From Thermodesulfovibrionales bacterium (GTDB lineage: Bacteria; Nitrospirota; Thermodesulfovibrionia; Thermodesulfovibrionales; UBA9159), in the NCBI GenBank assembly GCA_035686305.1, contig DASRZP010000063.1:4396-68395 (forward strand): 64,000 bases of DNA, given 5' to 3'. The stretch's first letter is position 1, and each line of letters opens with the position of its first letter. The notes below the pieces were generated by a model. The model saw only the letters and a list, made by a program, of their open reading frames with translations. It was not told where the DNA came from and did not search any database. Positions 14,992 through 61,116 of the stretch are shown piece after piece. Made by a program: the position numbers and the translations under genes.

Positions 14992-15071
14992 GTGGCTCTA
15001 TTTTATCTAGAAGACGGACATTTGGTCAATGAGACCTTGATGGCCCTCTGTCCTTTAGCATAGAATAGCGT

Positions 15072-21894: not shown

Positions 21895-21906
21895 GGAGGC
21901 TCTGAG

Positions 21907-23007
21907 ATGAAGCTCAGCATTGCAAAGGACGAACTTCAGGATAAGCTGTCCAATATCCAGAACATCGTGGAGAAGCGGAATACGATGCCTATCCTGAGCC
22001 ATTTTCTCCTCGACTCCGGGAAGAAGGGCACTCACATTGTTGCCACAGACCTTCAGATCGCCATCAAAGAGCCCATCACTGCAGAAGTCCATGTCGAAGG
22101 CAAACTCTGCGTCCCTGCGCGCAAACTCTTTGAGGTAGTAAGAGAGGCGGAAGGAGACATAGCAATAGAGTCCGATGACGAGCAGTGGGTAAAGGTACTT
22201 TATGGAAAATCGAGGTTTAGGCTTGCCTGCCTCCCTCCGGCTGAGTTCCCGGCATGGCCGGGCATGGAGAGCACCGAGGAAATCAGGCTTCATACCGCTG
22301 TACTTTCGGAAATGATCGAAAAGACCCTCTTTTCCGCGGGCGAGACGGACACGAGATATACCCTGAATGGACTCTTGTTCCACATCAAGCAGGGTGATAA
22401 GAACATGACCGTTGTCGGAACAGACGGGCACCGGCTGGCCCTGATCAAAAAGGGCCTGGATAAGACAGTCCAGGAAGAAAAGAAGGTGATCATCCCCCGA
22501 AAGGCTGCTTCGGAGGTCAGGAAGTTTTTTGGGACGACTGAGACCGTCAATGCTGTCTTCGGAAAGAACCACGTACTCTTCAGATTGGGAGAGGTCCAGT
22601 TTCTCGCGAGGCTCATCGAGGGTAGCTACCCGGATTACGAAAAGGTTATACCCTCGGCAAACGAGAAGCTCTTGACCATTGAAAGGGAGCTTTTCCTCAG
22701 GGCCCTGAGGAGGGTCTCTGTGATATCGAAGGAGCGGAGCAATGCGATCAGGATGGACGTAGCCGACGGCTCGCTGACGTTCTCGTCATCGAATCCCGAT
22801 CTTGGGGAGGCAAAAGATGAGATTGGGGCGGAATACACGGGAGACCCCCTTTCCGCAGGCTTCAATGCACGGTATCTCATCGACAGCCTCAATGCGATGA
22901 CCTCTGAAAGGGTCGTCTTTGCACTCCAGGACCCTCTCAGCCCGACCCTCCTGAAGGAAGAAGGAAGCGAAGACTACCGGTGTGTGATTATGCCGATGAG
23001 GGTGTAA
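21907..23007 (+). CDS. dnaN: DNA polymerase III beta sliding clamp
   Basis: 366 aa immediately after dnaA. Typical MKLSI.KDEL N-terminus and a C-terminal ...MPMRV end. Confidence 0.95.
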   Translation: MKLSIAKDELQDKLSNIQNIVEKRNTMPILSHFLLDSGKKGTHIVATDLQIAIKEPITAEVHVEGKLCVPARKLFEVVREAEGDIAIESDDEQWVKVLYGKSRFRLACLPPAEFPAWPGMESTEEIRLHTAVLSEMIEKTLFSAGETDTRYTLNGLLFHIKQGDKNMTVVGTDGHRLALIKKGLDKTVQEEKKVIIPRKAASEVRKFFGTTETVNAVFGKNHVLFRLGEVQFLARLIEGSYPDYEKVIPSANEKLLTIERELFLRALRRVSVISKERSNAIRMDVADGSLTFSSSNPDLGEAKDEIGAEYTGDPLSAGFNARYLIDSLNAMTSERVVFALQDPLSPTLLKEEGSEDYRCVIMPMRV

Positions 23008-23042
23008 GAGCTGTCCGTGAGGAAGCCAGAATCGAAAGGTGA

Positions 23043-25529
<2,487 letters not shown>

Positions 25530-36353: not shown

Positions 36354-37499
36354 CTATGGCGATTTCGTTAATCCGTTCTTCTGCCAGGTCATTACCCTGG
36401 ACAGCGCGTAAAAGGGTAGCTTCCAAAAACTACGGCGCCAGACACTCTTGAGGAATCCCGGAAACATGATAAGTTTATACAGCCGCCCTCTCTCTCCTGC
36501 GACCCGGGAATGCTGACACCAAAGATCGAGCATTGCTCTCCAGCGGGTGGGCGGGTTCATCGTGACGTTATACTCGATATACTCAATCCACGGTACCGGA
36601 AGGTCCCGAATGCTTTCGAGGACTTCCGAAGGAACGGCAGCCGAAACCGTCTTTCGCAGATAAGCGAGGCTTTCTCTCAGAGGCAAGATGAGGCGCCGCT
36701 TCAAGGCTTGCGCAATGAGGCGGTTCCAATCAATTTCGGATTGTGCGGTGTTGAGAATGGTCATTGCATCTGCTACCCAGCGGAAGGGCGGCGTGTAATT
36801 CCACCGTGCTCCGTGAATGCAGACGTGCAACAATTGGTCGGTCGGATTCAGGGCGAGGGTAGCAACGTCATGGATGGTGACGGGTCTCGCCCCATCCCAA
36901 AAATCATCGTCGGCGTTCATCCCCCGGGATTGCGACAGCACGTGCCAATGAAGATCGAATTCCTGACCGGCGGCATTCTTAAATCCATGGGAAAAACTCA
37001 CCGAGATATACTCCTCCGTCGGCATGAAATCCATGGGGGCCCATCCCAGACTCTGTAACAGCTCGATTGCAGGCAAGGCCTTATCCATTCGAATGAGGAC
37101 GTCAAAATCGTTCATCGGCCGGAGCCCGTAATCTTTGTAATACCCTATGGTAAGGGGGGCTCCTTTCAAGATCAGGGTCTCTATCTCTGCTTCGCGAAAA
37201 GAACAGAGGAGAGAGGCGATAGCATGGAACAGCATCTGATTTTTGTACCACGTCTGGCGATAGACGCCCTTGTATTTCCCCATAGACGGATCCTTCAAAC
37301 CATGGGTCCGGAGATTCCGATAAAGGAGCGGCAGCATGCGGTGGGAAGCGGAATCAACCTGCTCTACGTCGACGGACGATTTCCATGCCTTCCACGCCTC
37401 GACGGCGTCCTTGCCGCGTAAAAGCGCAGCCCGCAGGAGCAACTCCTGTTCCGGTGAAGGCAAACTGTATCGTTTAGATTGCCCTCTCCTCATGTGCAA
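36354..37499 (-). CDS. NTP_transf_5-family (uncharacterised) nucleotidyltransferase; last gene of the operon
   Basis: 381 aa. LKGAPLTIGYYKDYGLRPMNDFDVLI carries the NTase-fold G-x-D-x-D core, with a helical N-terminal region as in the NTP_transf_5 family. It overlaps the upstream gene by 10 nt. Confidence 0.7.
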   Translation of the reverse strand: MHMRRGQSKRYSLPSPEQELLLRAALLRGKDAVEAWKAWKSSVDVEQVDSASHRMLPLLYRNLRTHGLKDPSMGKYKGVYRQTWYKNQMLFHAIASLLCSFREAEIETLILKGAPLTIGYYKDYGLRPMNDFDVLIRMDKALPAIELLQSLGWAPMDFMPTEEYISVSFSHGFKNAAGQEFDLHWHVLSQSRGMNADDDFWDGARPVTIHDVATLALNPTDQLLHVCIHGARWNYTPPFRWVADAMTILNTAQSEIDWNRLIAQALKRRLILPLRESLAYLRKTVSAAVPSEVLESIRDLPVPWIEYIEYNVTMNPPTRWRAMLDLWCQHSRVAGERGRLYKLIMFPGFLKSVWRRSFWKLPFYALSRVMTWQKNGLTKSP

Positions 37500-38824
37500 T
37501 CCCCCTCCTTCACGCCGTCCGCCCCACCAGGAGATGAAAAGGTCTGGATGAATTTTGTCATTGCCCGAACCTCATGATATGCGGCCTTCCATTCGTCCGC
37601 TTTCGTTGGATTCAATGGTCTTCCCTCGCAATCGGTGCTTGCTATCCATATGCCGTCGTCGGAGGGTATCTGGTACCGGAAAATCCAGTTGAGAAGCAGG
37701 TCAAGGACCCTGCGGTAATCTGCCGTTCGTTTGTACCGAAGGGCATCGGTCAGGCCTGCAAGGCATTCGGCCTGCACCCACCAGACCTTCTCGGTGTTTG
37801 ACGCGGGCTGTTCACCAAAGCCTTTGAAGTAAAACCCCCCTCTCTTGTAATCGAACCCGTACGTTAAGGCATGGGTGAGAATACTGAAAGAATGGTCCCA
37901 GTCGGGAGGGCTTTCGAGGACCTCCTGTGCACGGATCATTAACCAGGCGAACTCAACATTATGGCCATAGCAGATCTCTTCGAAGCCCTCCCCCTTCACC
38001 TCGCCCCAATCGTCCAGCCGGTACTCACAAAAAGCGCTTGCCTCTTTGGGAAAGAAGAAGGTCTTGTTGATGTGCAGTGCCTCAGTCAGCGCCGATTTCA
38101 CCGAGGCGTCACGAGTCACCTCGTAAAACTCTGTGAGGGCCTCCATCCAGTGCAGATGGGCATTGCCGCTCTTTACGCCGAGAACCCCTGGCAAGCCTTT
38201 CGGATACCATAACATTCCTTGCCCCGAGGATTTCAGAGGGCTGAAGTCTTCTTCTCCATGCTCCCGCCACCCCGGGTGTATCCCGTCGTGAAACTTCTCT
38301 TGTACCTTCTCAAAGAGGAAGAAGGCTTGATCGAGGGGAGCGGACAGGCCGCTTGCACGATAGTATTCAAGGAGGGCATAGAGGACAAAGGCCTGTCCAT
38401 AGAGAGATTTGCAGGGATTGATCACCCGCCCCCTGAGATCGGTTTTCCAGAAGAACCCCCCGTAGTGCTTATCAAGCAAGGCACCAAGCAAGAAGCGGTA
38501 GCCAGCCTCGGCAGCCTTCAGATAATCCCGATTCCCATTGCTGTAGCCCAATCGGTGAGCCATCGAAAAAACGAGGAGGAGACGGGATTGAGAGACCAAT
38601 TGTTTTTCTCCCGTCCTGCGACCGTTACGGCAAAGGGCTGCTGAAATCCATGCATGGAGACGGTTTGGCCTGTTCCGTGAAGGGGAAAGTCTGTCCGACA
38701 GGATATACCCGCCGTTTGCCAAGTCTACGGCCGTGTCATGCCAGTAGGGCATTACCTTCTCGCGCAGGCAGCGATCCAATTCTTCTGCTATTGCGCTTTC
38801 ACTGATTTCTTCGAAATCGATCAT
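37490..38824 (-). CDS. AGE-family (N-acylglucosamine 2-epimerase / cellobiose-mannose epimerase-like) alpha/alpha6-barrel enzyme
   Basis: YWHDTAVDLANGGY, QSRLLLVFSMAHRLG, GGFFWKTDLRGRVINPCKSLYGQAFVLYALLEYY, NAHLHWMEALTEFY, YGHNVEFAWLM. Confidence 0.75.
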   Translation of the reverse strand: MIDFEEISESAIAEELDRCLREKVMPYWHDTAVDLANGGYILSDRLSPSRNRPNRLHAWISAALCRNGRRTGEKQLVSQSRLLLVFSMAHRLGYSNGNRDYLKAAEAGYRFLLGALLDKHYGGFFWKTDLRGRVINPCKSLYGQAFVLYALLEYYRASGLSAPLDQAFFLFEKVQEKFHDGIHPGWREHGEEDFSPLKSSGQGMLWYPKGLPGVLGVKSGNAHLHWMEALTEFYEVTRDASVKSALTEALHINKTFFFPKEASAFCEYRLDDWGEVKGEGFEEICYGHNVEFAWLMIRAQEVLESPPDWDHSFSILTHALTYGFDYKRGGFYFKGFGEQPASNTEKVWWVQAECLAGLTDALRYKRTADYRRVLDLLLNWIFRYQIPSDDGIWIASTDCEGRPLNPTKADEWKAAYHEVRAMTKFIQTFSSPGGADGVKEGDCT

Positions 38825-39831
38825 GACTCCTTCTTTATCTCGCCCAGCAATCTCTTCATAAGCTGTTGTCTCAGATATCTCCCTGTGAATCGATCAGCCG
38901 AGTCAGATGCGAGAAATCTTATGGCCGCTTTTCTGAAGGAGACGATTTCTTCCTGTGACATATCCTTAATCATCCGAAAGATTCGCGCGGGGTCTTGATC
39001 CCTGCAGTCTATATAACAATCGGAAGGGAAGGTTTCCTTTACAAACGCTCCTCCGCCCCAGTAGAGGGGAACAGCACCCGATCGAAAGGCATCGAGCATC
39101 TTTTCCGTGATGTATCCGGGGAGATCGCAGTTTTCAAAAGCCAGAATAAAATTATATCTTCTCAGGGTCTTCTGCTTGTCTTCGGCAGTGCCGCAATAAT
39201 TGGGAAAGGTGACCCATTTGTTTCGTTGTCCTCCCCACGGTTCCGCCCCATAAATGTCGATATCCTTTCCCATGGCCTCAACAAAGCGAATTCTCTCCCG
39301 AAGCAGATTGAGTTCAGGACGTTCGGAATACCGGTTGATGATGCAACAAAGCCTGGAGCGTCGTTCCGTAAGATTCCGCTCCAAAAGAGAGAGAGTCTTA
39401 GCTCTGCCATTGGCAAGGGCCGGATAAAACATGCGCCTGTTGATATCGGGTTCATTATACAGATAGAGGGATGGTTTCAACACTTCAGACTGGATATTTC
39501 TTCTCGTCTCTTCGGTCATGGCCGGAAGGGGCTCAAGGGTAAAGAATAGCTTCGCCTTTTGGAAGAGCACAAACTCATGGTGAAGAAAATTCTGAGCAAC
39601 GAGATAATCATGCTTCCGCTTATGAAAAAGAGAGGGAAGGTTATGGAGAAAATGATAGACCGAAGGATAAAAAAGAACCCCTCCTTCACGATTTCCTACG
39701 CCGGTCATTTTGACAATCTTCCTGTTCTTATAGGTAGAAAAATAAAATAATCCCTGCCAGCTAACGTAGAATCGGAACCTTTTAATCAATCCGGCAGCAG
39801 CCCCGTACATAATATCTCTTAATCTCCTCAC
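38821..39831 (-). CDS. GT10-like (alpha-1,3/4-fucosyltransferase family) glycosyltransferase
   Basis: YNFILAFENCDLPGYITEKMLDAF matches the GT10 signature FxLxFENSxxxxYxTEK. Confidence 0.65.
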   Translation of the reverse strand: MRRLRDIMYGAAAGLIKRFRFYVSWQGLFYFSTYKNRKIVKMTGVGNREGGVLFYPSVYHFLHNLPSLFHKRKHDYLVAQNFLHHEFVLFQKAKLFFTLEPLPAMTEETRRNIQSEVLKPSLYLYNEPDINRRMFYPALANGRAKTLSLLERNLTERRSRLCCIINRYSERPELNLLRERIRFVEAMGKDIDIYGAEPWGGQRNKWVTFPNYCGTAEDKQKTLRRYNFILAFENCDLPGYITEKMLDAFRSGAVPLYWGGGAFVKETFPSDCYIDCRDQDPARIFRMIKDMSQEEIVSFRKAAIRFLASDSADRFTGRYLRQQLMKRLLGEIKKES

Positions 39832-40553
39832 GATGTTGAGCCTTCTCCGGTCGTTGACTTTCGGCGCCTGTCAAGGGATGCCTTAAGAATGCGCACAACA
39901 TCGGTCTGAGAACCACGCTCGCGAATACCCATGTTGGCGGTATGGATCCGCCTCAACGTAACGACTTCATCGAGAACGATGCTCTTGAGGCCCTTCTCCG
40001 CCGCCTTCAGATACCAGTCAATAAAGTCGCCCACTCTCCATGTTGTTTCAAAGAGTCCGACATGAAAAAAAGACTCCCGTTTGATGAGCATGCTGCCCTT
40101 GAAGACCCCCGGCATGACCTCGGCAGGGATGCGGACGCTTTTTCTCTCATCCTCATCGAGTTCCGGACTGTAAAACTGTTTGACCTGTCCGAATACCATG
40201 TCCACGTCGGGACTGTCTTCAAAGACCGCCACCTGATGCATTAATTTATCTTCGTTCCAGAGGTCGTCAGCATCGAGAAAGGAGAGAAAAGATCCGCCAC
40301 ACAACATTATGCCCCTGTTGAGGGCGGCACCGACACCGCCGTTGGTCTGGTAGACGTATCGTACCTCTGAACCAAAGCTCTTTGCTACCCCGGCGCTGTC
40401 GTCCGTCGAGCCATCATCCACCACAATGACCTCGATCGGCCCATAGGTCTGGCAGAGCACGCTCTCTATCGCCTCACAGAGGTATTTTTCGCCATTGAAG
40501 ACCGGAATAATGACGCTCACCAAGGGATCGGTTATTTCGTGAAACCTAAGCAT
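39828..40553 (-). CDS. family 2 glycosyltransferase (operon paralogue d)
   Basis: LVSVIIPVFNGEKYLCEAIESVLCQTYGPIEVIVVDDGSTDDS...FLDADDLW, with C-terminal ILKASLDRRRK. Confidence 0.85.
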   Translation of the reverse strand: MLRFHEITDPLVSVIIPVFNGEKYLCEAIESVLCQTYGPIEVIVVDDGSTDDSAGVAKSFGSEVRYVYQTNGGVGAALNRGIMLCGGSFLSFLDADDLWNEDKLMHQVAVFEDSPDVDMVFGQVKQFYSPELDEDERKSVRIPAEVMPGVFKGSMLIKRESFFHVGLFETTWRVGDFIDWYLKAAEKGLKSIVLDEVVTLRRIHTANMGIRERGSQTDVVRILKASLDRRRKSTTGEGSTS

Positions 40554-40568
40554 TCTGGTGTACTGACA

Positions 40569-41693
40569 TCAGAGGCGGATTTTCTTGATCCGCAGGGAAA
40601 TCTGTTCCCTTCGGTAAAGATAAGAGTACAAAAGATATTTCTTAAAGCCCTCATCCCGCAATATCCTGTAATGTGCCTTGATCGTCCGTATCAAAAGGTG
40701 CCCCAGTCCCTGCCTCGGTCTCCATAGAGCCCTTGCTCTCTCGCGTATGGTTTTGCTTTCCGCGTACAGAGCCAATCTCTTGAGTTCCGCTTTGTTCCAT
40801 AGCCTTGCGCCGTAATCTTCAAACTCCTCGGTGGCGACCTTCACTCCTATCGAACCGAGGCTTTGAACATTCTCTTTAGCCTCTCTCAAGGTATTCATGG
40901 CGGGTACGACGACATCGCAGGGAGAGTTCTGAATGCACCATACGAGGTGTCGCTGGGCAGGGGTCAGAGATAGATTGTTCTCAGGGTGGTCTTTACGGCC
41001 TGCGGACTCGAAGACACTGATTTTCATTTCCCATTGCGATGGAGCACAATCCCAGCAAAAGAGTTTCATAGCCACGATGCCGACATCGTGCTCCTCGGCA
41101 ATCGGAAAGAGTTCTTCGTTAGCCTGTTGAACCTTCCAGTTAAAACGTATCATGATATAGTCAATCATGTCAGTTTCACGGATGACCTTGCCGATCGTGG
41201 GGAAGAGGTTTATCGCGTGGCAGCTAAGGCCGATATTTTGGACGAGGTCCTCTTCCTTGAATTTTCTCATCGCTTCACAAGCCGCAACGATATCGTCATA
41301 GGAAGCGTCCCCGTCTCCGACACTTGCGAGAAATAAAGGCGCACGGGAATAGCCGAGAATGGCAAGTCGTGACTCAAGTTCCGAGCGGAGCTTCTGATGC
41401 CATTGCTGGGCCGAAATGAAACCCCCGTAAAGGGAAATCACGACATCCTCTTTGATATTCGCACGCCGAAAAGAATCGGCCAGCAGTTCCACTTCTTCCT
41501 TATAGGTCGTGTCAAAATAATTTACGCCGGATGAAACAAGGTAATGAATAAGGTGTGCTCGGTCGTCGGGAGAAAGGAAGAACTCAGGACCATTGCCTAC
41601 AGGATGGGTGTGCCCTCCCAGCCCAAGCACATTCACTTCAAACCCTGTCCGACCAAGCCTTCGCAGAACTCTTCCTGCTTCGTTTTCCATCAC
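40569..41693 (-). CDS. aldo-keto reductase with about a 40-aa basic C-terminal extension
   Basis: RLGRTGFEVNVLGLGG...NYFDTTYKEE (AKR N-terminal and D/Y catalytic context). The extra tail is LIRTIKAHYRILRDEGFKKYLLYSYLYRREQISLRIKKI. Confidence 0.7.
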   Translation of the reverse strand: MMENEAGRVLRRLGRTGFEVNVLGLGGHTHPVGNGPEFFLSPDDRAHLIHYLVSSGVNYFDTTYKEEVELLADSFRRANIKEDVVISLYGGFISAQQWHQKLRSELESRLAILGYSRAPLFLASVGDGDASYDDIVAACEAMRKFKEEDLVQNIGLSCHAINLFPTIGKVIRETDMIDYIMIRFNWKVQQANEELFPIAEEHDVGIVAMKLFCWDCAPSQWEMKISVFESAGRKDHPENNLSLTPAQRHLVWCIQNSPCDVVVPAMNTLREAKENVQSLGSIGVKVATEEFEDYGARLWNKAELKRLALYAESKTIRERARALWRPRQGLGHLLIRTIKAHYRILRDEGFKKYLLYSYLYRREQISLRIKKIRL

Positions 41694-42913
41694 CGGCCCT
41701 CTGACGAGAACTTTTCCTTGATCCAGTTCGAGAGTTGCCCCCTCCTGTAATGATATGAGAACTGGACGTACTTCCCGAGACCTTCATTTTTTAATATTCG
41801 ATAATGCGCCCTGGCAGTCCGCCGCAATGTTTCACCTATGCTCTGTGTCCGCTTAGGCTTCGGAATTCTTGCCTTATTGGGCGCAAGCGGGATTCTGCAC
41901 AAGTCCCGCGCCAGCACATTGGTCGAAATCAATGAGAGCCACAGGGTGAACTCGGATGTCAAGTCAAAGTCGGCGTTCGTGAATTCCCATTGTTTGCTCA
42001 TGCCGGAAAGCCAGCTGCCATCGGTCCTTTGCAGCGCCATAATGTTCTTCGCCACGTGCATCGCAATGTCCCGGTACCTCGCCTCACCGGTGATACGGTA
42101 AAGCATGGCACATCCCCAAGCAGCCTTCCCGCTTGAGTAGCCGTCCCAGGGGTCAATGCAGCGCTGCTGAAAGTCAAAGTACCATTGAGCCAGCTCCCGG
42201 TACGCGGTCTCTTGGGTTGCACTTTCCAGCAGCACAAGGAAAGCCAGAGGGAGGCCCACAGCAAACCAGCACTGGTCTGCCTTCTTTGTATCGACGACAC
42301 GCAGAAAGGCGTCGTGGTCGTCTTTCGGCTCTGTATACAATTGACCGTCAGCTTTCACGGCGGTGAAGAAGCGGTCATCTGATGCGGGTTGCAGTTTTAT
42401 GAGGTACGAAAGATAGTCTGCAACGCGCCTGGCTTGATCAATCATCCCTGCCGCCAAACAGGCAATGCCGGCCGCACTGGAAGATGCGGTATCTGCCATC
42501 TCTTTCCCGCCATGGTCCGTGAGCCGTGAATAGAAGCCCCCGTGATCATCGGCCTGCTGGGTAAGTAAAAAAGACAGTGCAGGCAGAGCGATATCGTAGC
42601 GGCCTGCGCGCATGCTGCCGGCGACAAGATAAGCGTTGACATACGGGTAATGTCCTGTAATGTGCCATGGATGCGCACGGGGCAAGAAATCTCCTCTTGC
42701 GGTAGAAAAATTCTGACGAACGTAGGTTAGCGATCGGTGGGCTGAAGGGGAGAGGCCGGTCTCTGTCAATGCCCAGCCCGCCTTGTAAAAAGCATCCACC
42801 TTAGGATCTCTCAAGCGCTTCCAACTCCCGTCCCGATTCTGGTGAGCGACGAGCCATCGGCTCCCGGCAAGGGCGCGCTCGCAAATCTGCTTTGGTGTCA
42901 AAGGCTTGGCCAT
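41690..42913 (-). CDS. terpenoid-cyclase/prenyltransferase-repeat-like alpha/alpha-barrel protein with the same C-terminal extension
   Basis: RWLVAHQNRDGSW and LQRTDGSW repeats (Q..DGSW type). Tail LRRTARAHYRILKNEGLGKYVQFSYHYRRGQLSNWIKEK. The start is ATG 42913, 4 nt after the upstream stop; the track start 42976 would overlap by 59 nt. Confidence 0.5.
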   Translation of the reverse strand: MAKPLTPKQICERALAGSRWLVAHQNRDGSWKRLRDPKVDAFYKAGWALTETGLSPSAHRSLTYVRQNFSTARGDFLPRAHPWHITGHYPYVNAYLVAGSMRAGRYDIALPALSFLLTQQADDHGGFYSRLTDHGGKEMADTASSSAAGIACLAAGMIDQARRVADYLSYLIKLQPASDDRFFTAVKADGQLYTEPKDDHDAFLRVVDTKKADQCWFAVGLPLAFLVLLESATQETAYRELAQWYFDFQQRCIDPWDGYSSGKAAWGCAMLYRITGEARYRDIAMHVAKNIMALQRTDGSWLSGMSKQWEFTNADFDLTSEFTLWLSLISTNVLARDLCRIPLAPNKARIPKPKRTQSIGETLRRTARAHYRILKNEGLGKYVQFSYHYRRGQLSNWIKEKFSSEGR

Positions 42914-42917
42914 CTGA

Positions 42918-43781
42918 TCAGTCTTCTGCCTTCCCTTCTGCCAAATCGGAAAGTATTCCCGAAGGTTCTTCCCCAATGCAAGAGAGCCTGGGCAGGGACT
43001 CAGCCGGACTCCGGGTTTTCTCCCTGCGGCGGTCGAGTGACTTCTTGAGCATGTTGATAAAATAGTGATTCCCTAATTGTTCCTGATTTGTCATATTACC
43101 TCCATGTCGCCGATAAAACTGTGTCACGTCCCTGTGTACCACCATCGAGACGCCGTGTTCTCTGGCCCGCATGAACCAGTCCCAATCATCGCAATACCTT
43201 TGTGTTTCATCAAAACGACCGACACTATCAAACACCGATCTCCTGAAGAGTGCACTGCCGACACTCATGGCAAGTACGGGGTTTCCCCATTCCCTGAATA
43301 TATGTCTGCCTCCGACAATATCCGTGAAGATCATGATCTGTGTATATCCAATAACAATGTCTGCAGAGGGCGCGGCGTTCAAGTACCAAAGCTGTCGGTC
43401 CAGCTTTTTCTCGCTCCAGAGGTCATCGACGTCCAGGAATGCGATCACATCTCCCTCGGCTTCATCCAATCCTCGGTTTCGGGCCGCAGGAAGTCCTCTG
43501 TTCGGCTGATGAACATAACGTACGTCTCCCTTGAGTCCGTCGGCGATCCTTTGGGTATTGTCCGTCGAGCCGTCATCTACAATAATAATTTCTAATGGGT
43601 CGTGCTCCTGCTGCCGGATGCTCTCTACGGCCTCGGCCAGAAAGGCCTCTCCGTTATAGACAGGAATTATGACGCTGACGAAGGACGGGGGTAACTCCAT
43701 CTCAGCCTCTCGCAAAAGGAATCGTTGGTATCGATCCTCCTCGCTCTGTATCGAATGACTTTTATCACGGAGTCTCTCCAT
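42918..43781 (-). CDS. family 2 glycosyltransferase (paralogue a)
   Basis: FVSVIIPVYNGEAFLAEAVESIRQQEHDPLEIIIVDDGSTDNT...FLDVDDLW...MLKKSLDRRREK. Confidence 0.85.
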   Translation of the reverse strand: MERLRDKSHSIQSEEDRYQRFLLREAEMELPPSFVSVIIPVYNGEAFLAEAVESIRQQEHDPLEIIIVDDGSTDNTQRIADGLKGDVRYVHQPNRGLPAARNRGLDEAEGDVIAFLDVDDLWSEKKLDRQLWYLNAAPSADIVIGYTQIMIFTDIVGGRHIFREWGNPVLAMSVGSALFRRSVFDSVGRFDETQRYCDDWDWFMRAREHGVSMVVHRDVTQFYRRHGGNMTNQEQLGNHYFINMLKKSLDRRREKTRSPAESLPRLSCIGEEPSGILSDLAEGKAED

Positions 43782-44544
43782 AGCCTGATGAATTCTTTCG
43801 ATGCGTCATAATCTTTTCGAGGTTGTTCAGTTTCGGAAAGGGCTCAACCTGTCTATCCCCTTGCTGTCGGCGACGATCAAGGGACTTTTTCAATGTCTTT
43901 ATAAAATAGCTGTTCCGTAACGTTGAATCAAGGGTCATGTTGGACCCGTGCCGGCGATAAAAGAGGGTTACCTCCTGCTGTAGATCTATCGAGATTCCCA
44001 TTTCCCTGGCCCGCATAAACCAGTCAGTATCTTCACCATAGCGAAGGGTTTCGTCAAAGACGCCAACCTTCTCAAGGACGGATTTTCGAAAGAGTCCGGC
44101 ACTCAGGAGAAGGGCACAGAAAGGATCATGCCATTTTTCAAACCGTGGTCTGCCACCTTCGCCCCACTGCAATTTCATCGGCTGGCTGAGACCCAAAACG
44201 ATCTCCACCGAAGGGGCCTCTGCCAGACGGGCAAGCTGGAGCGGAATCTTATTCCTGCTCCAGAGATCATCGACGTCGAGGAAGGCGATAAGCACTCCTT
44301 GAGAGATCTGCAATCCCCTGTTGCGGGCTGCAGCCGGACCACGGTTCTCCTGTTGAAGATACGTGATATCGTTGCCATAACTCCTCGCAACGGCCTCTGT
44401 ATCGTCCGTGGAGCCGTCATTCACGACGATCACCTGCATCGGCCGGTGGTCTTGGGACAGTGCGCTTTCGATTGCCTCAGCCAGGTAACGCTCGCCGTTA
44501 TATACAGGGATAATGACACTCACGAGGCTGTCTCTACCGATCAT
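43765..44544 (-). CDS. family 2 glycosyltransferase (paralogue b)
   Basis: LVSVIIPVYNGERYLAEAIESALSQDHRPMQVIVVNDGSTDDT...FLDVDDLW...TLKKSLDRRRQQ. Confidence 0.85.
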   Translation of the reverse strand: MIGRDSLVSVIIPVYNGERYLAEAIESALSQDHRPMQVIVVNDGSTDDTEAVARSYGNDITYLQQENRGPAAARNRGLQISQGVLIAFLDVDDLWSRNKIPLQLARLAEAPSVEIVLGLSQPMKLQWGEGGRPRFEKWHDPFCALLLSAGLFRKSVLEKVGVFDETLRYGEDTDWFMRAREMGISIDLQQEVTLFYRRHGSNMTLDSTLRNSYFIKTLKKSLDRRRQQGDRQVEPFPKLNNLEKIMTHRKNSSGYGETP

Positions 44545-45247
44545 GAGAATTTCCGCTTTTCTGATCTCGCTGTCGCCCGATTGTCCGTCTGATCAGGGAA
44601 AGCACTTCCCTTCTGTTTGTCCGTACGTCGGAAGAAAGATTCCGGTCATGAATCCGTTTATAGAGCAATACATCGGGGATTATGAACATGGGGACATCTC
44701 GATCCTTCGCACGTTTAAACCATTCGACGTCACAGGCTATGCTGAGGGCAGGATCGAAGCTGCCGATGAGATTGAAGACAGACCTTCGGGCGAGCAGGGT
44801 GCCTGGCGTCCGACCTACATGGACCTGATCCAGAAACGTTTTCGTATGCCCCGGCCTCAGGCGGGCTCCCGGCTCGACAAAGAACTTCACCCATGCGTTC
44901 ACATAGTGAATCTCAGGGTTTTGCAGGAGATAATCGACCTGAGTGGAGAGCTTGTTCGATAGCCAAAGGTCATCGGAGTCCAGAAATGCGATCAGTTCCC
45001 CCTTGGCAGCTTCTAGTCCCGTATTACGACCGCACGCCAAGCCCCGGCCTCCCTGACAGATGTACTTGACCGATCTGAAAAATTGCGAGATCGGGGCGGT
45101 ACGGTCAACTGAGTTTCCGTCAACAACAATGACCTCATAGGGAGCGTAGTTCTGGGTGAAGATGCTTTGAAGTGCGGGAATGATAAAGCGTTCGCCGTTG
45201 AGTACGGCAACGATAACGCTCACGAGAGGCCTAGCCATGTCTTTCAC
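44534..45247 (-). CDS. family 2 glycosyltransferase (paralogue c, more divergent)
   Basis: LVSVIVAVLNGERFIIPALQSIFTQNYAPYEVIVVDGNSVDRT...FLDSDDLW. Confidence 0.8.
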   Translation of the reverse strand: MKDMARPLVSVIVAVLNGERFIIPALQSIFTQNYAPYEVIVVDGNSVDRTAPISQFFRSVKYICQGGRGLACGRNTGLEAAKGELIAFLDSDDLWLSNKLSTQVDYLLQNPEIHYVNAWVKFFVEPGARLRPGHTKTFLDQVHVGRTPGTLLARRSVFNLIGSFDPALSIACDVEWFKRAKDRDVPMFIIPDVLLYKRIHDRNLSSDVRTNRREVLSLIRRTIGRQRDQKSGNSHDR

Positions 45248-46529
45248 GTTTCTCCTCTATCGCTTTTGTCACGGATGCCCAATCCCCAGGGCCGTCTCCG
45301 AGAATCTTTTCAGCATGAACGGCCATGGCGGTTCCGCAGAGTGAATCGATCCTCCGGATGACCTTGAGCGCCGCGTGGTTCCACGTCCAGTGTTGACGTG
45401 CCCGCAGGGCTCCCTCCGTCCCCTTCCTGACGATCTCCTGCCTTGAATGATATGCTTTTTGGAGAAGTTCCTCAAGGTGCTCCTTATCCGGTTCAAGGAG
45501 GAACCCCTCTTGGTTGAGTTCGTGGCCACAAACCTTCTTGACGCTCCGTCTGTCTGCATCGATCCGCCATCCCACCTCCTCATCCACAAAATCATCGGTA
45601 GCGCCGCCGAGGCTCACGATGACCGGAAGACCGCTGGCCATAGCCTCAAGCGTCGGCAGGGAGAAGCCTTCGCCGCGATAGGAAGAGACAAAGACGTCGC
45701 AGGCCCGGTAGAGCCTTGCCATCTGCTCTTTGTTGAATTCATCGGCAAGGTAGAGGACCTCCGGCATGCCCTCTCGGTCCTGAAATCTCCTGATGAGGTC
45801 CTGTGCCGTCTGACCCCTGTACAGGGTCTTTACACCGAGATCTTTGATGATCAGGCAGACATCGTCTTTCGAGGTGAAGGCGCGGGAGTAACTCTCAAGG
45901 AGAATGTCAATCCCCTTGCGATAGATAGTACCACCGACAAAGAGGAACATAAAGCCTTTGCTTGTTGGAAGTCTGAGAGGCCCTCCTAGTGGAGAGAAGG
46001 TATCTGTGTCTACGCCGTTGGGGATGACATGAACCTTGGCAGCATCGAGACCTGACGAGACAAAGGCGCTGCGGGAGAACGTTGACGGCGTCCAGATCTC
46101 CTCAGCAAGGGCAAAGGTGTCGGTATAGAATTGAGGCACTGCGGAATATTCCCAGGGGTGCATGATGATCCATAGGGCCTTGCCGGGCGGATTTGGCCGG
46201 GGAGGCCATTGGTGGCGCACCCAGACATAGGGTCGCTTCGAAGGGTCACGAAGGGAAAACCCCTTCATGCGGATGTCATGAGTCCGTAGTCTTTCGAATC
46301 GCGGGTTGCCCTCTGGAGAAAACTGATCCGGCTCGTAAGGGACGGTGGTGAGTTCTGCAACTCCGAAATCAAGAAGGCTTGAACAGATCTCCCGGTTTAC
46401 GAGAGAGAAGGAAGTCACTGCAAACTGGGTACCCTCCCAAAAGATATGGACCTGTTGTTGAAGATCGAGGGCCGTATCAGGGCTGATCAACCGATGAAGG
46501 GCCGTATGATTTACTAAACGCTCATTCAT
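45231..46529 (-). CDS. GT4-type (GT-B fold) glycosyltransferase
   Basis: C-terminal VFVSSYRGEGFSLPTLEAMASGLPVIVSLGGATDDFV (E-x7-E region). Confidence 0.8.
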   Translation of the reverse strand: MNERLVNHTALHRLISPDTALDLQQQVHIFWEGTQFAVTSFSLVNREICSSLLDFGVAELTTVPYEPDQFSPEGNPRFERLRTHDIRMKGFSLRDPSKRPYVWVRHQWPPRPNPPGKALWIIMHPWEYSAVPQFYTDTFALAEEIWTPSTFSRSAFVSSGLDAAKVHVIPNGVDTDTFSPLGGPLRLPTSKGFMFLFVGGTIYRKGIDILLESYSRAFTSKDDVCLIIKDLGVKTLYRGQTAQDLIRRFQDREGMPEVLYLADEFNKEQMARLYRACDVFVSSYRGEGFSLPTLEAMASGLPVIVSLGGATDDFVDEEVGWRIDADRRSVKKVCGHELNQEGFLLEPDKEHLEELLQKAYHSRQEIVRKGTEGALRARQHWTWNHAALKVIRRIDSLCGTAMAVHAEKILGDGPGDWASVTKAIEEKRERHG

Positions 46530-46617: not shown

Positions 46618-48435
46618 TCAGGAGAGAGCATGACCGCCCTGTTTGCGCGTACGCATCCTGTCCAGACTCTTTTTGAAGACCCGGAGCGAATTCAGTTCAA
46701 CGGTGGTCTTGTTGCAGGTCATGTTCCTCCCATGCCTTCGGACGATGAGGGTCACGGCTTCCAGTCTCCTGATGGGCAGCTTCAATTCCTGTGCCCGCGT
46801 AAACCAGTCCGTGTCTTCACCAAAGAGCAGGGTTGGATCAAAGAGCCCCACCTTTGTGAAGGCCGATCTCCGGAACAGTGCCGCTCCGATAGAATAGGGA
46901 AAGGATTCTGCCGGATTTCCACTGTATTCATATTCACGGGTTGCGTCGGTGTAGTGAGCGAGCTGGGCGTAACCATGTATGACATCAATCTCCTCGTCTT
47001 GCAACAATTCCTTTACGAGCATCGGGAGGTTGTTCTTCGGCCACAGGTCATCGACGTCGTTGAAGGCGACAAATTCGCCTGTTGCTTCTATGACCCCTTT
47101 ATTCCTTGCTGTTGCAGGGCCGTGGTTATCCTGATAGAAATATCGGATTTCCGTCGGCAACTGTTCAACGATATCCCTGGTCTTATCGGTGGAACCATCG
47201 TCGATGATGATGATTTCCAAGGAAGGATAGCCCTGAGACAGGATATTCTCCACCACTTCCCGGATGAAGGGTTCACCATTGAATACCGGGATGATGACGC
47301 TTACCACCGGCCATACTCTTGGAGAGGCGTGTGGTTCCGGAGCGCTATCGTACCTCCTCGGGACGCCTGCAGCGCTTTCACGAGCGAGGGTTTGTAAAAC
47401 CTCGGAAAGAGCGACCGGGATATGCGCAAGATCGCGGCCGAGTTCGAGATTGAAGCACGGGAGGCTTGCCGACAGCTGATTGAGAAACTCATAGGTCTTA
47501 ATGCCGGCGCCGGGCAGCTGAGTCATCGTCGTGAAGGATGCTGCCCGAAGAATGTTTTCTGAAGATGTTGTCGTGAGCCGCGACTTGTCGTTGCCTGAAA
47601 TATGGGGGACGATGACCGCCTTCAGGGGCATCGCCTTCATGATCTGACCGCTGAATGCGGGATGGAGAAACATGACCGCCTTCTCATCCTTGAGGTTCTT
47701 GGTGTTCGAAATGAACCGGCCAAATTCGGGGAAATGTTCGACATGGTCGGCATTGAGTTTTGCGGTGTTATATAAGCTGAATGCGCAGGGTTCCGGCTTC
47801 AGCCGTGCCACGATGTAATCGTCACCGAGATAAAAGAGGCCCGATTTTAGAGAGGAGAGAGCCGTCGTTGATTTACCGATCCCTCCCTTACCTGTCAAGA
47901 GAACGGCACCCCTTTCCGTTCCGACGGCTGCTGCGTGAACAAGCTGGCATTCGTTCTTCTCCAGCCACCAGTGGAGTAAAGTCCTGAGGGGTGCGGCATT
48001 CAGCCAGGAAGGAAGACCTGCAGCATGGTCTACCCAAAAGAGACCCCTCCTTGCTTCAAGGTCCATCATGTTCAGGGAGAATTCAAACCAGTGGAAGGCG
48101 GTCTTAATCCTGCTGCTGTTATACCCCCAGATGTCTCCCCGGTACGTGTACCGGTCGCGCTTCCATGGCGGGGGAGGCATGTTGGTATTCGTTGATGTGC
48201 TGTCCCATAAACAGATGGTCAAATCAGGCGCCTCGATTTGAGGTATCCTGAGATGACTGAAAGCGGGTGTGATATGGTGAATTAATGCCCGGCCTGCAAA
48301 GGAGAGGCGGAGGGTAGTGTCGCATATCCGGTAATAGAAATCGATCTCCCCGGCAGACTCCCTTGCTTCCAGGTATCGATGATAGACATTCTGAAAAAAT
48401 GCTACCTGTTCTTCTACCGTTTCTAAGGTGTCCAA
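46618..48435 (-). CDS. fusion protein: HprK-related P-loop (HPr-kinase-C-like) domain plus family 2 glycosyltransferase
   Basis: aa ~170-215: LVHAAAVGTERGAVLLTGKGGIGKSTTALSSLKSGLFYLGDDYIV (HprK-C-like P-loop followed by DD). aa ~375-605: VVSVIIPVFNGEPFIREVVENILSQGYPSLEIIIIDDGSTDKT...FNDVDDLW...VFKKSLDRMR. The GT2 part belongs to the same subfamily as the stand-alone GT2s. Confidence 0.75.
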   Translation of the reverse strand: MDTLETVEEQVAFFQNVYHRYLEARESAGEIDFYYRICDTTLRLSFAGRALIHHITPAFSHLRIPQIEAPDLTICLWDSTSTNTNMPPPPWKRDRYTYRGDIWGYNSSRIKTAFHWFEFSLNMMDLEARRGLFWVDHAAGLPSWLNAAPLRTLLHWWLEKNECQLVHAAAVGTERGAVLLTGKGGIGKSTTALSSLKSGLFYLGDDYIVARLKPEPCAFSLYNTAKLNADHVEHFPEFGRFISNTKNLKDEKAVMFLHPAFSGQIMKAMPLKAVIVPHISGNDKSRLTTTSSENILRAASFTTMTQLPGAGIKTYEFLNQLSASLPCFNLELGRDLAHIPVALSEVLQTLARESAAGVPRRYDSAPEPHASPRVWPVVSVIIPVFNGEPFIREVVENILSQGYPSLEIIIIDDGSTDKTRDIVEQLPTEIRYFYQDNHGPATARNKGVIEATGEFVAFNDVDDLWPKNNLPMLVKELLQDEEIDVIHGYAQLAHYTDATREYEYSGNPAESFPYSIGAALFRRSAFTKVGLFDPTLLFGEDTDWFTRAQELKLPIRRLEAVTLIVRRHGRNMTCNKTTVELNSLRVFKKSLDRMRTRKQGGHALS

Positions 48436-48472: not shown

Positions 48473-48946
48473 TCATTGCCTGTTGACGGGAAGGTCATCC
48501 CGGGAGCTTGGCCAGCCTGTTTCATCGACGTCATGAATCGGGTCCAGCAAGAGAAGGTCCTGCATATCGGTGTATTTATGTAACACGGGGTGCACGAAGA
48601 TTTCCGGACCTTCACGGTGGCTTGCTGCTTCGCAGCCGGCACGACCGAGGGCCTCTTCACTTCCCCCCCCTTCGTCCGTTACAATGAGATCCTCCCGTTG
48701 TAGTTCGCTCATCAGCCGATTGAGAGCCTCTTCTATCTCGCCTCTGTCAGCCCTGTACCGACCTGCAATCCATTCGATGATTCCGTTGAGATCGAAGCTT
48801 CTGTTGATAAGTCCCCATATGTCCGCGCCCGCCCCATCAAGACTGTAATAGTTGCCGCTATCAAGATGGACCAGGACGGTCTCTCCGTCAATGGTCTCAT
48901 GGATGACTTTAGGACTATTGATCCTGAACCGTGAACCCTCTGTCAT
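48473..48946 (-). CDS. PqqD-family (RRE-type peptide-binding) protein with a C-terminal extension; first gene of the operon
   Basis: N-terminal ~95 aa: FRINSPKVIHETIDGETVLVHLDSGNYYSLDGAGADIWGLI...IIEWIAGRY...EIEEALNRLMSELQREDLI, the PqqD pattern (beta strands, then .lN.tg..iW.l., then helices). An extra ~60 aa ends ...HKYTDMQDLLLLDPIHDVDETGWP... Confidence 0.75.
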   Translation of the reverse strand: MTEGSRFRINSPKVIHETIDGETVLVHLDSGNYYSLDGAGADIWGLINRSFDLNGIIEWIAGRYRADRGEIEEALNRLMSELQREDLIVTDEGGGSEEALGRAGCEAASHREGPEIFVHPVLHKYTDMQDLLLLDPIHDVDETGWPSSRDDLPVNRQ

Positions 48947-59679: not shown

Positions 59680-59763
59680 ATATGATGCTAAGCTGATAGC
59701 ATCGTATTGGACCCATTACAGGAACAGTTTATAAAGCACCTACCTTGCCAAAGGAGGTTCTGG

Positions 59764-61116
59764 ATGAAAAGAAGATGGTCCGCTTTTATCCTTGGGTTAT
59801 GTTGCCTTCTCCTGTCAGCGGGGGTATCAGAGTCTGCAAGCATCACGAATCCTATTCTGAAGAAGCTTGTGGAAAAAGGTATTCTCTCCGAGCAAGAGGC
59901 TCTTGAAGTAATGCAGGATATGGAAAAAGAGATACGGGAGAAGGACAAAGCAACAGAAGTCAAGATTGAAGAGAAGGTTGCCGAGAAGGTCAGTGAGACA
60001 GCGCCTGCGGAAAAGAACGAGGAGATCGATAAAATTGTGAAAGCCTTCAAAGGTCTTAAGTTCAGCGGCCTCTGGTACCTCTCTTATGGTTATGGAAAGA
60101 CAGGAGGCATACCAAGCGGTGCGCAATTCAACAATTTTAATGTAAAACGAGGGTATTTCACCTTAGAAAAGGAGCTCTTTCCATGGTTGTCAGGCCGGAT
60201 GACAACTGATGTGACGACGGTGAATCTGAAGACACAGAATCTTGGACCTGGTGAGAATGTCTCTCTCAACGTCAACGGCTCCCTGGCGGTAAGAATAAAG
60301 TACCTTTATGCTCTCGTTACCCCTCCGGATTTGGCATTTCTCACCAAACCGGGCGCTGAAGTCGGCATTGTGCACACGCCGTGGCTTGATTTTGAAGAGC
60401 ACATAAATTATTACCGTTTGCAGGACACGATGTTTATCGAAAGAAACGGCATCATGAGTTCAGCGGATTACGGCGTAACCTTTGCCGCGCTCTTAGGTGG
60501 GCTCATGGATGAGAGTTATCGTAAAAATGTCAATCCCTCATATCCTGGCAGCTACGGGAGCATTCAGGCAGGAATTTATAATGGCGGAGGATACACGACG
60601 ACCGAGCAGAACAGGAATAAGGTGCTCGAGGGACGGATAACCGTCAGGCCTCTACCCGACATTATCCCGGGACTTCAGCTCTCGTATTTTGGGGTGACGG
60701 GCAAGGGCAACGTTGCCGCGCACCCCAATTGGACCGCAAATCTTGCATTCGGCAGTTTTGAGCACGAATACTTTGTCGTGACAGGGCAGTACTTCTGGGG
60801 GGATGGGAACGCCCAGGGATCGGATCAATTCCAGAAGAGAGGTTATTCCCTGTTTACGGAACTGAAGCCTTTTATTGAATTGAAGTTCCCGCTTGAGAGA
60901 TTCACTCTCATTGGTCGCTTCGACCACTTTAATCCCAATAAGAATGTGAGCGATGCCTTGTCAGGGGAAAACAACAGGTATATTGTAGGTATAGCTTACA
61001 GTATAGACAGACTGCATAATAACATGGTCCTCCTCGATTACGATAATGTAGAATACAAGCAACCGGGAAAGACACGTGATGAGAGAATACAGCTGACGTT
61101 GCAGGTGGCTTTTTAG
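59764..61116 (+). CDS. outer-membrane beta-barrel porin, phosphate-selective (OprO/P)-like
   Basis: Signal peptide MKRRWSAFILGLCCLLLSAGVSESA. N-terminal helical/charged segment (ILKKLVEKGILSEQEALEVM...). Alternating beta-strand pattern and a C-terminal ...IQLTLQVAF (terminal Phe). SD AAGGAGG. The family call is by eye. Confidence 0.65.
   Translation: MKRRWSAFILGLCCLLLSAGVSESASITNPILKKLVEKGILSEQEALEVMQDMEKEIREKDKATEVKIEEKVAEKVSETAPAEKNEEIDKIVKAFKGLKFSGLWYLSYGYGKTGGIPSGAQFNNFNVKRGYFTLEKELFPWLSGRMTTDVTTVNLKTQNLGPGENVSLNVNGSLAVRIKYLYALVTPPDLAFLTKPGAEVGIVHTPWLDFEEHINYYRLQDTMFIERNGIMSSADYGVTFAALLGGLMDESYRKNVNPSYPGSYGSIQAGIYNGGGYTTTEQNRNKVLEGRITVRPLPDIIPGLQLSYFGVTGKGNVAAHPNWTANLAFGSFEHEYFVVTGQYFWGDGNAQGSDQFQKRGYSLFTELKPFIELKFPLERFTLIGRFDHFNPNKNVSDALSGENNRYIVGIAYSIDRLHNNMVLLDYDNVEYKQPGKTRDERIQLTLQVAF

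Follow-up and report, generated by a model that had tools for sequence, protein, structure and literature searches.

The C-terminal amphipathic helix of WbdD puts this O-antigen tailoring enzyme at the inner membrane (PMC3447403). Encapsulation peptides are short helices at the termini of enzymes that differ in fold; a poorly conserved linker lies between helix and enzyme, and only the pathway-associated homologues of those enzymes carry the peptide (PMC4594438). Here we describe a tail that has features of both. It was found at the C-termini of two adjacent enzymes, an aldo-keto reductase (AKR) and an AprG-like protein with an (alpha/alpha)6-barrel, encoded in a 64-kb stretch of DNA from a Thermodesulfovibrionales bacterium (contig DASRZP010000063.1). 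This whole stretch is called the window below, and coordinates are positions within it unless another locus is named. Sequence comparison and structure prediction show that the two tails are copies of one undescribed, portable C-terminal module, composed of a poorly conserved linker and about 40 residues with a predicted helix-Gly-helix arrangement. The features concerned are as follows.

40569..41693, minus strand: aldo-keto reductase gene, 374 amino acids, GTG start (open reading frame; Pfam Aldo_ket_red)
40572..40712, minus strand: AKR copy of the tail, QGLGHLLIRTIKAHYRILRDEGFKKYLLYSYLYRREQISLRIKKIRL (BLASTP; tail hidden Markov model (HMM) 62.8 bits, E = 2.5e-18; hhalign probability 99.4%)
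41690..42913, minus strand: AprG-like (alpha/alpha)6-barrel protein, public call of 407 amino acids from MAKPLTPKQ (P0018; AlphaFold2; AprG match)
41693..41845, minus strand: barrel copy of the tail, QSIGETLRRTARAHYRILKNEGLGKYVQFSYHYRRGQLSNWIKEKFSSEGR (BLASTP; tail HMM 76.1 bits; AlphaFold2)
41840..41899, minus strand: Pro/Lys-rich flexible linker from barrel to tail, ...RIPLAPNKARIPKPKRTQS... (residues 360-379 of the 428-residue open reading frame)

As with the WbdD-type helices, known from the Escherichia coli O9a O-antigen system, a terminal cationic amphipathic helix is carried by an otherwise soluble glycan-tailoring enzyme, and the pathways of the tail hosts are likewise accompanied by Wzm/Wzt or Wzz/Wza export machinery. 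However, we found no sequence relationship between those helices and the tail, which is a conserved 40-residue unit of two predicted helices that retains 40-55% identity across six unrelated folds. Membrane-targeting helices are usually specific to one family and conserved in pattern only. With encapsulation peptides the tail shares the logic of its linker (identity 0.45; predicted local distance difference test score, pLDDT, about 57), but those peptides are about 15-20 residues long, form a single helix and show no sequence conservation, whereas the tail has about 40 residues and two helices, is conserved and is very basic. Targeting to a microcompartment or an encapsulin was rejected, since shell genes are lacking in the window and in related loci: Pfam detected no BMC or EutN domain among 39 distinct larger open reading frames of the window, nor among the called genes of the related loci.

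The C-terminal sequences of the two open reading frames (40569-41693 and 41690-42976, both on the minus strand) are as quoted in an earlier note on this DNA, which had claimed a C-terminal module of about 40 residues common to the two enzymes. When the whole AKR was compared with the whole barrel protein by BLASTP, the sole significant segment was AKR 328-371 against barrel 378-421, with 24 of 44 positions identical, 32 of 44 positive and no gaps (E = 2e-11, composition-adjusted); the approximately 22 identities in 39 positions that had been counted by hand in the tail core agree with this alignment. Composition was controlled for by 5000 shuffles: the two tails gave a Smith-Waterman score of 120, the shuffled sequences 23.1 +/- 4.6 (z = 21), and none of the 5000 scored as high. 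The claim of a common module is borne out by both results. At the DNA level the tail coding segments are 59% identical, with the same codon at 10 of the 24 identical residues, so that the likeness is kept at the protein level and does not reflect a recent DNA repeat. The segment 40569-41830, to which the claim had been attached, takes in the AKR gene and the greater part of the barrel tail. No third copy was detected in the 64-kb window by tblastn or the tail HMM, and when the tail profile was compared with each of the 12 operon families by hhalign, only the two known hosts were recovered. A weaker echo, suspected at the N-terminus of the GT10-like protein of the same operon, did not hold up. 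It gave no tblastn or HMM match, an hhalign P of 0.49 and a shuffle z of -0.2 to -0.5, and we reject it as a relative of the tail; its likeness is one of composition only (charge +8 and nine aromatics in 40 residues).

In the AKR, the catalytic domain extends to about residue 321 and the tail comprises residues 328-374, with a net charge of +11 and 8 aromatic or His residues (over the 50 residues RPRQGLG...IRL). The barrel domain ends at ...NVLARD and is followed by a linker of about 20 residues, for which AlphaFold2 gave a pLDDT of about 57-62 and no secondary structure. Beyond it the tail is predicted to form two helices (residues 380-398 and 400-426 of the open reading frame), with a break at an invariant Glu-Gly. 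The full-length model places them at 359-377 and 379-405 in P0018 numbering (pLDDT 79-88), and a model of the tail alone, from 25 tails, at 9-27 and 29-55 (core pLDDT 74-83). The tail consensus is [RK]-T-x-[KR]-[AT]-H-Y-R-I-L-K-N-E-G-L-K-K-Y-L-L-Y-S-Y-x-Y-R-K-G-Q-[VIL]-x-x-W-I-K-K, within which HYRILKNEGLKKYLLYSYxYRKGQ forms a core of 24 residues.

Conservation of the tail is comparable to that of the domain to which it is attached. In 26 tail-bearing orthologues of the barrel protein, the domain and the tail had mean pairwise identities of 0.68 and 0.64, the linker one of 0.45. Across 66 non-redundant tails, nearly every position of the core was conserved, all round the helices (conservation moment 0.09-0.15). 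Some columns are fixed by the pattern with which these tails were gathered, but the same invariants are seen in the HMM matches. The invariant residues include polar ones (His, Glu, Gly, Ser, Arg and Gln) as well as Tyr. The net charge is +9 to +11. Helix 1 is amphipathic, with a hydrophobic moment of 0.54-0.59 over 18 residues and a Leu/Ile/Tyr/His face opposite an Arg/Lys face, and thus has the hydrophobic and cationic faces of a terminal amphipathic membrane-targeting helix. Helix 2 is weakly so (about 0.3).

Neither in the window proteins nor in 10 further hosts is the tail matched by a Pfam or NCBIfam family. A profile search of solved structures in the PDB gave a best E of 0.35 (an exportin), which is noise, and Foldseek with the tail model returned nothing at E <= 10. 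Since the membership tests by sequence and by structure all failed, the tail lies outside every described family. We regard it as a new and rare domain family, with 15 representative clusters among 1.84 billion, of a familiar functional kind, namely the terminal targeting or anchoring peptides.

These clusters come from an exhaustive HMMER search, at E <= 1e-3, of a profile of the two tails against 1.84 billion representative proteins. The best of the 15 matches had an E of 6e-13, and in 13 of the 15 the tail was C-terminal. As for the others, the match in a repeat protein (P0014) looks spurious, and in P0006 the tail lies near the N-terminus of a called protein that probably spans two genes. 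The hosts included AKR fragments, a barrel fragment, a Methyltransf_24 protein, NodZ/GT23-like proteins, GT2 proteins of about 335 residues and a fragment with a SPASM domain. Such a profile search had been proposed in the earlier note, and since it finds the tail on several further enzyme families, the likeness is not compositional noise. A word-indexed search of 5.8 billion clusters gave no match with the two-tail alignment and only two NodZ-like C-terminal fragments with an alignment of 16 tails.

One match, the 82-residue P0004, consists of a transmembrane helix followed by the tail. It is a standalone open reading frame (L028, 841-1089) in which a complete tail directly follows the transmembrane-like helix, with no degraded enzyme gene upstream, and it was seen once, in a single assembly. 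It could be a membrane-anchored partner of other tails, or a remnant. In the NodZ-like hosts (L012, 160-1152; L006, 1-462; L026, 10001-10981), a partial repeat of the helix-1 motif precedes the tail; examples are SKTHFKIYF...KTHYSILKEEG and SKTHYRILF...TPHYLLLKREG, and the repeat amounts to a local duplication of KTH[YF]xI.

Scans of genome and metagenome contigs yielded 19 tail loci, two of them in genomes, both metagenome-assembled genomes of Nitrospirota (Thermodesulfovibrionales and Nitrospiraceae). Fourteen of the 19 (L001, L002, L004, L005, L008-L011, L013-L015 and L017-L019) are syntenic with the operon of the window; in the other five (L003, L006, L007, L012 and L016) the tail is on NodZ-like, GT2 or other hosts. 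Most hosts outside the operon lie on short contigs. Both the barrel protein and the AKR are tailed in eight metagenomic loci and in the genome locus L001, where the AKR copy is frame-shifted; in the other genome locus, L002, the AKR is tailed and there is no barrel gene. At L001 (10120-12019) the AKR frame breaks just before the tail, which is in frame with the downstream GT2 and so appears as a tail-GT2 fusion. Assembly indels are a likelier cause than a real rearrangement, since the GT10 gene of that contig is split as well.

The closest orthologues of both enzymes therefore keep the tail. Across loci the tails group by host, with identities of 0.65 between barrel tails, 0.59 between AKR tails and 0.56 between the two kinds, and there was no excess similarity within a locus of the kind expected from gene conversion or co-evolution (permutation p = 0.32). 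This clustering by host, together with the lack of a within-locus excess, suggests that the tail copies are old, vertically inherited with their hosts and under purifying selection.

Three further loci hold tailed enzymes in other glycan settings. In L024 a tailed GT2 (P0013) stands amid GT4 genes, UDP-GlcNAc-2-epimerase, Wzz, Poly_export and PAP2; in L026 a tailed NodZ-like protein (P0142) has a GDP-mannose-dehydratase-like gene on one side and a UDP-glucose/GDP-mannose dehydrogenase on the other; and in L027 a tailed GT2 (P0140) is accompanied by another GT2 and three GT4 genes. Each has one tail-bearing enzyme within about 20 kb, and no gene for a PqqD, HPr-kinase-like or NTP_transf_5 protein was found within +/-10 kb of these tailed enzymes. 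One of the syntenic loci, L014, contains an ABC2_membrane and ABC_tran transporter pair and a methyltransferase.

Neither host fold normally carries such a tail, as the earlier note had stated: AprG (339 residues), more than 90 barrel homologues and AKR orthologues at 57-61% identity are all without it. The barrel family falls into two groups, about 28 proteins of some 400 residues with the tail, and more than 90 of some 340 residues that end at the domain. Two of the latter are encoded in catabolic or unrelated loci, one adjoining a BNR_2 protein and a sugar ABC importer. More distant orthologous pairs without the tail, in other glycan loci, are arranged as follows.

L031: operon of the HPr-kinase/GT2 type that includes an ABC exporter and in which no PqqD is visible; barrel protein with a short basic extension; AKR 61% identical to that of the window, stopping exactly before the tail
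L030: Wzm/Wzt-type ABC-transporter cluster; barrel protein with an unrelated amphipathic extension (+15, hydrophobic moment 0.57); AKR 57% identical to that of the window, no tail
L032: adjoins two PMT_2 membrane glycosyltransferases; barrel protein with another short basic extension; AKR with another short basic extension

A further locus, L020, in which an AKR lies near a tail-less barrel homologue, was rejected as an ancestral pair because its AKR is not an orthologue of the window AKR. Likewise, the C-terminal octamer GLPKYLQY of the L031 NTP_transf_5 protein was rejected as a relative of the tail (2.5 bits, not significant). Over about 260 residues, the tailed GT2 proteins share 33-37% identity with an equally long GT2 that has a hydrophobic C-terminus instead; its last 45 or so residues are transmembrane-like (Kyte-Doolittle 19-residue mean 1.85) and occupy the same position as the tail. 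By these sequence comparisons, the tail appears as an optional, clade-specific addition at a site where relatives bear other cationic or hydrophobic ends.

The identity of both hosts, as assigned earlier, could be confirmed. The AKR gene, which overlaps the stop of the barrel gene by 4 nt, matches PF00248 (Aldo_ket_red) at 2.7e-11 and 43.5 bits against a gathering threshold of 24, with only residues 38-210 aligned; among solved structures, IolS (5e-5) and L-galactose dehydrogenase come closest to it. The exact sequence of this AKR has no entry in the assembly index. The barrel protein is 100% identical to P0018, 'MAG TPA: hypothetical protein VFG09_07670 [Thermodesulfovibrionales bacterium]'. 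A mechanically called open reading frame, with a TTG start, would extend to 42976 (428 residues) and would overlap the upstream GT2. The barrel protein has no Pfam or NCBIfam match, but its AlphaFold2 model, built from an alignment with 47 homologues, has a pLDDT of 90.9 and matches AprG in Foldseek at an E of about 1e-22 (TM-score 0.92, root-mean-square deviation 2.3 A, 30% identity), and phmmer aligned the two at E = 9e-41 over residues 7-335 of 407. AprG, according to its PDB entries (9c95, 9lfi), is a transaldolase of apramycin biosynthesis that was crystallised with GlcNAc, GalNAc and an epimer of the octose product. We take its substrate, from the titles of these entries and general knowledge, to be a free aminoglycoside intermediate. 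On the strength of the full-length match in sequence and modelled fold, the barrel host can probably be named more precisely as an AprG-like sugar transaldolase; unlike it, AprG stops at the end of the barrel, with no linker or tail.

The two hosts had been described as consecutive enzymes, and they do form a conserved adjacent gene pair, AprG-like transaldolase plus oxidoreductase, that probably acts in sequence. Transaldolase and AKR of this subfamily are adjacent in the HPr-kinase operon (window and L031), in the Wzm/Wzt cluster (L030) and in the PMT_2 cluster (L032). This pairing in several types of glycan locus suggests that polysaccharides of these bacteria carry a higher-carbon, octose-like or otherwise C-C-extended sugar.

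In the window the tailed pair lies within an operon on the minus strand, of which the remaining genes are listed here in the direction of transcription.

48473..48946, minus strand: PqqD-like protein of the RiPP (ribosomally synthesised and post-translationally modified peptide) recognition element (RRE) type, 157 amino acids, net charge -17, first operon gene (Pfam PqqD 7.8e-14)
46618..48435, minus strand: HPr-kinase-like P-loop domain fused to GT2, 605 amino acids (Pfam Glycos_transf_2 5e-33)
45231-46529, minus strand: GT4, upstream of the tailed pair (Pfam, synteny)
44534-45247, minus strand: GT2, upstream of the tailed pair
43765-44544, minus strand: GT2, upstream of the tailed pair
42918-43781, minus strand: GT2, upstream of the tailed pair
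39828-40553, minus strand: GT2, downstream of the tailed pair (Pfam, synteny)
38821-39831, minus strand: GT10-like protein, downstream of the tailed pair (Pfam, synteny)
37490-38824, minus strand: N-acylglucosamine-2-epimerase-like protein, downstream of the tailed pair (Pfam, synteny)
36354-37499, minus strand: NTP_transf_5 protein, downstream of the tailed pair, operon end (Pfam, synteny)

The order kept in synteny is PqqD-like, HPr-kinase-like/GT2, GT4, several GT2, [barrel], AKR, GT2, ..., GT10, [epimerase-like], NTP_transf_5. The segment 36354-48946 (minus strand) is a self-contained operon of 11-12 genes, with 3-4 GT2 genes between GT4 and the barrel gene, which is kept in many Nitrospirota-type metagenome contigs; in L034 (3846-15667) the entire operon is flanked by housekeeping genes. 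We found no described counterpart of the whole. No transmembrane segment is present in any of its proteins in the window. Lasso-peptide pathways offer a partial likeness, in that a kinase and then a nucleotidyltransferase phosphorylate and glycosylate a C-terminal Ser (PMC8498205). The PqqD-like, HPr-kinase-like and NTP_transf_5 proteins of the operon resemble this tailoring set, as in paeninodin and pseudomycoidin, but the operon adds about eight glycosyltransferases and an AprG-like enzyme, its matches to such families fall below curated cutoffs, and the lasso set has no counterpart of the tail. Thus the PqqD-like protein matches NCBIfam lasso_PqqD_Bac at 1e-12, and the HPr-kinase-like domain matches Pfam Hpr_kinase_C at 3e-4 and NCBIfam HprK_rel_A/B at about 4e-6, in each case below cutoff. 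No lasso cyclase, leader protease or precursor gene was recognised in the operon, the inspection for a precursor covering only about 48.4-49.3 kb, at its 5' end.

After its PqqD domain and a variable linker, the PqqD-like protein of the operon has a strongly conserved acidic C-terminal segment, ...P-V-L-H-K-Y-T-D-M-Q-D-L-L-L-L-D-P-I-H-D-V-D-E-T-G-W-P-S..., over which no family model was found; its orthologues lie at 3745-4218 in L001 and at 3864-4337 in L002. The segment could be a fused substrate or carrier peptide, with the Ser of a conserved GWPS, or a docking site. The five GT2 domains (39828-40553, 42918-45247 and 46618-48435, minus strand) are paralogues with a common basic end, L-K-x-S-L-D-R-R-R or IRRTIGRQR, and the C-terminus of the NTP_transf_5 protein has a charge of +8 and 8 aromatics. 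Cationic termini are thus a general feature of this enzyme set, and those of the GT2, GT10 and NTP_transf_5 proteins are not homologous to the tail.

As to function, what is established is that the tail is homologous between its hosts, selectively maintained, predicted to be helical, cationic, borne on a flexible tether and found on six folds of glycan-assembly enzymes. Tentatively, and as a plausible rather than a probable reading, we favour a role as a cationic tag that keeps enzymes in place at the membrane or at some other anionic surface of assembly, for which genomic context and composition are the grounds. Since the soluble relatives of both hosts lack the tail, an ancestral pair of AprG-like transaldolase and partner AKR may have gained it on joining the glycan-assembly operon in Thermodesulfovibrionales-type bacteria. 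The cationic (+9 to +11), Tyr/Trp-rich helix pair on its tether would act as an address tag, keeping tailoring enzymes that would otherwise be soluble on the anionic surface at which the glycan intermediate is made. This surface would most probably be the cytoplasmic face of the membrane, the site of lipid- or carrier-linked glycan assembly, and the outcome would be that consecutive enzymes stand beside their polymer-bound substrate. For such a role the nearest precedent is the WbdD helix (PMC3447403), and the role is consistent with the export machinery present in tail loci (ABC2_membrane and ABC_tran in L014; Wzz, Poly_export and PAP2 in L024), and with the finding that in relatives the site of the tail is filled by other basic extensions or by a hydrophobic anchor.

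A number of points weigh against localisation at a membrane surface. The argument for membrane binding is one of context and composition. A run of 24 conserved residues with polar invariants exceeds the needs of a generic amphipathic anchor, and conservation all round the helices suggests a specific fold or partner. Helix 2 is weakly amphipathic, no transporter or membrane protein is encoded in the operon of the window or in L034, and the presence of a PqqD-like protein points to a possible substrate in the form of a soluble peptide. Additionally, since P0004 has a transmembrane helix of its own, membrane targeting by its tail would be redundant.

Some of these points would be accounted for if the tail were a specific protein-protein docking domain, binding a dedicated receptor or scaffold, or another tail, so as to join the enzymes in one complex. 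We consider this possible, though rather doubtful. One enzyme could then pass a reactive carbonyl-sugar intermediate on to the next, and the mode of action would be like that of encapsulation peptides or polyketide synthase docking domains. The all-round conservation of the core with its polar invariants is in keeping with such a role, as is the conservation of the tail, and not of the linker, to the level of the catalytic domain. The genes of the tagged enzymes lie side by side as a conserved pair, the two reactions could plausibly follow one another, and the layout (a helical peptide and a poorly conserved linker, on unrelated enzymes and on pathway-associated homologues only) is that of encapsulation peptides (PMC4594438); P0004 could serve as a membrane receptor for other tails. 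However, pairing of tail with tail is not a general role, because L024, L026 and L027 each have a single tailed enzyme within about 20 kb, and tails with a charge of +9 to +11 each would not be expected to self-associate unless a surface of counter-ions were present. Nor did we find a partner gene that consistently co-occurs with the tail, or genes for a microcompartment shell or encapsulin in the window. The two tails of one locus show no extra similarity, and sister operons use unrelated basic extensions or none.

In a more far-reaching form of docking, which we regard as somewhat less likely again, the tail would be the cytoplasmic equivalent of dockerins or encapsulation peptides: an address tag dedicated to glycan-assembly lines, specific in sequence and with a receptor of its own. 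That receptor might be a protein of the membrane, the acidic PqqD-like carrier or, on an anionic surface, further tails. Any fold that gained the tag would plug into the same assembly complex, and the oxidoreductase and AprG-like transaldolase of the operon would build a higher-carbon sugar on a carrier-bound glycan.

Alternatively, the tail might bind the carrier or the substrate, that is, the acidic PqqD-like protein, a peptide that PqqD presents, or an anionic glycan; enzymes recruited from free-sugar metabolism would in this way gain affinity for a polymer-bound sugar. The charges are complementary, since the PqqD-like protein has a net charge of -17 and a conserved acidic C-terminal segment and the tails are at +9 to +11. 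A PqqD gene is found in every tailed operon locus in which the region upstream of the kinase gene is visible, and was not seen in L031, the sole HPr-kinase-type operon with a tail-less pair, but the correlation depends on this one operon, which lies on a 10-kb contig. In L026 the NodZ-like host adjoins a UDP-glucose/GDP-mannose dehydrogenase, a maker of acidic sugars. A basic composition rich in Tyr and Trp is typical of carbohydrate- and polyanion-binding surfaces, which speaks for this role; against it, the helix pair is, to our knowledge, no known carbohydrate-binding fold. The loci of the tailed GT2 and NodZ-like proteins lack PqqD, HPr-kinase-like and NTP_transf_5 genes within +/-10 kb, so that a role dependent on PqqD cannot be the general one. 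An obligatory co-occurrence with a PqqD-type protein, as would mark a RiPP leader or an RRE-binding peptide, was likewise not found, L024, L026 and L027 being without PqqD within +/-10 kb of their tailed enzymes. Overall, we judge carrier or glycan binding to be unlikely.

It is highly improbable that the tail is itself the substrate, a core peptide fused to the enzymes whose YSYxYRK motif would be phosphorylated at Ser or Tyr by the HPr-kinase-like domain and then glycosylated. The nearest precedent is offered by the borosin-type precursors, in which the core peptide is fused to the modifying enzyme. Ser and Tyr are indeed invariant in the tail, and no separate precursor gene was recognised in the part inspected (about 48.4-49.3 kb, at the 5' end of the operon). 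The operon moreover combines an RRE-type PqqD with HPr-kinase-like and NTP_transf_5 proteins, and homologues of the latter two modify the C-terminal Ser of lasso peptides (PMC8498205). However, the tail also occurs in ordinary polysaccharide loci with no kinase, RRE protein or NTP_transf_5; it is predicted to be helical and is conserved over its full length, unlike a variable core peptide; two different enzymes of one operon are tailed; and there is no protease or cleavage motif.

Finally, although basic or aromatic ends without homology to the tail do occur on other operon proteins (the GT10 N-terminus and the NTP_transf_5 and GT2 C-termini), a chance likeness of two such C-termini is excluded by the z of 21, the composition-adjusted E of 2e-11, the profile matches down to 6e-13 among 1.84 billion proteins and the conservation of the tail in at least 10 orthologous loci, and a recent, functionless DNA duplication is likewise refuted by the DNA identity of only 59% and by codons that differ at most of the identical residues.

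Should the tail prove to be a portable tag for localisation or docking, it would provide a signature that marks the enzymes of one glycan-assembly machine in uncultured Nitrospirota and their relatives. It would also be a compact natural tag, of about 40 residues, for tethering foreign enzymes to a site of glycan assembly, and would represent a case in which soluble enzymes of sugar metabolism (an AprG-like transaldolase and an AKR) were recruited to polymer-bound sugars. Were it merely a membrane anchor, it would be a modest addition to known biology. The tail also draws attention to a widespread, uncharacterised operon in which RiPP-type parts are found together with about eight glycosyltransferases and an octose-type C-C bond-forming enzyme.

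Elsewhere in the window, an open reading frame of 469 residues at 59707-61116 (plus strand) has no Pfam match at E <= 1e-5. Selenocysteine machinery is encoded at 13086-16946, with selA at 13086-14504 (minus strand) and selB at 15072-16946 (plus strand). At 6173-7763 and 20563-25529, what looks like the neighbourhood of a chromosomal replication origin has parA and parB on the minus strand and, on the plus strand, dnaA, dnaN and gyrB. A low-GC stretch (GC 0.45) lies at about 26-28 kb.

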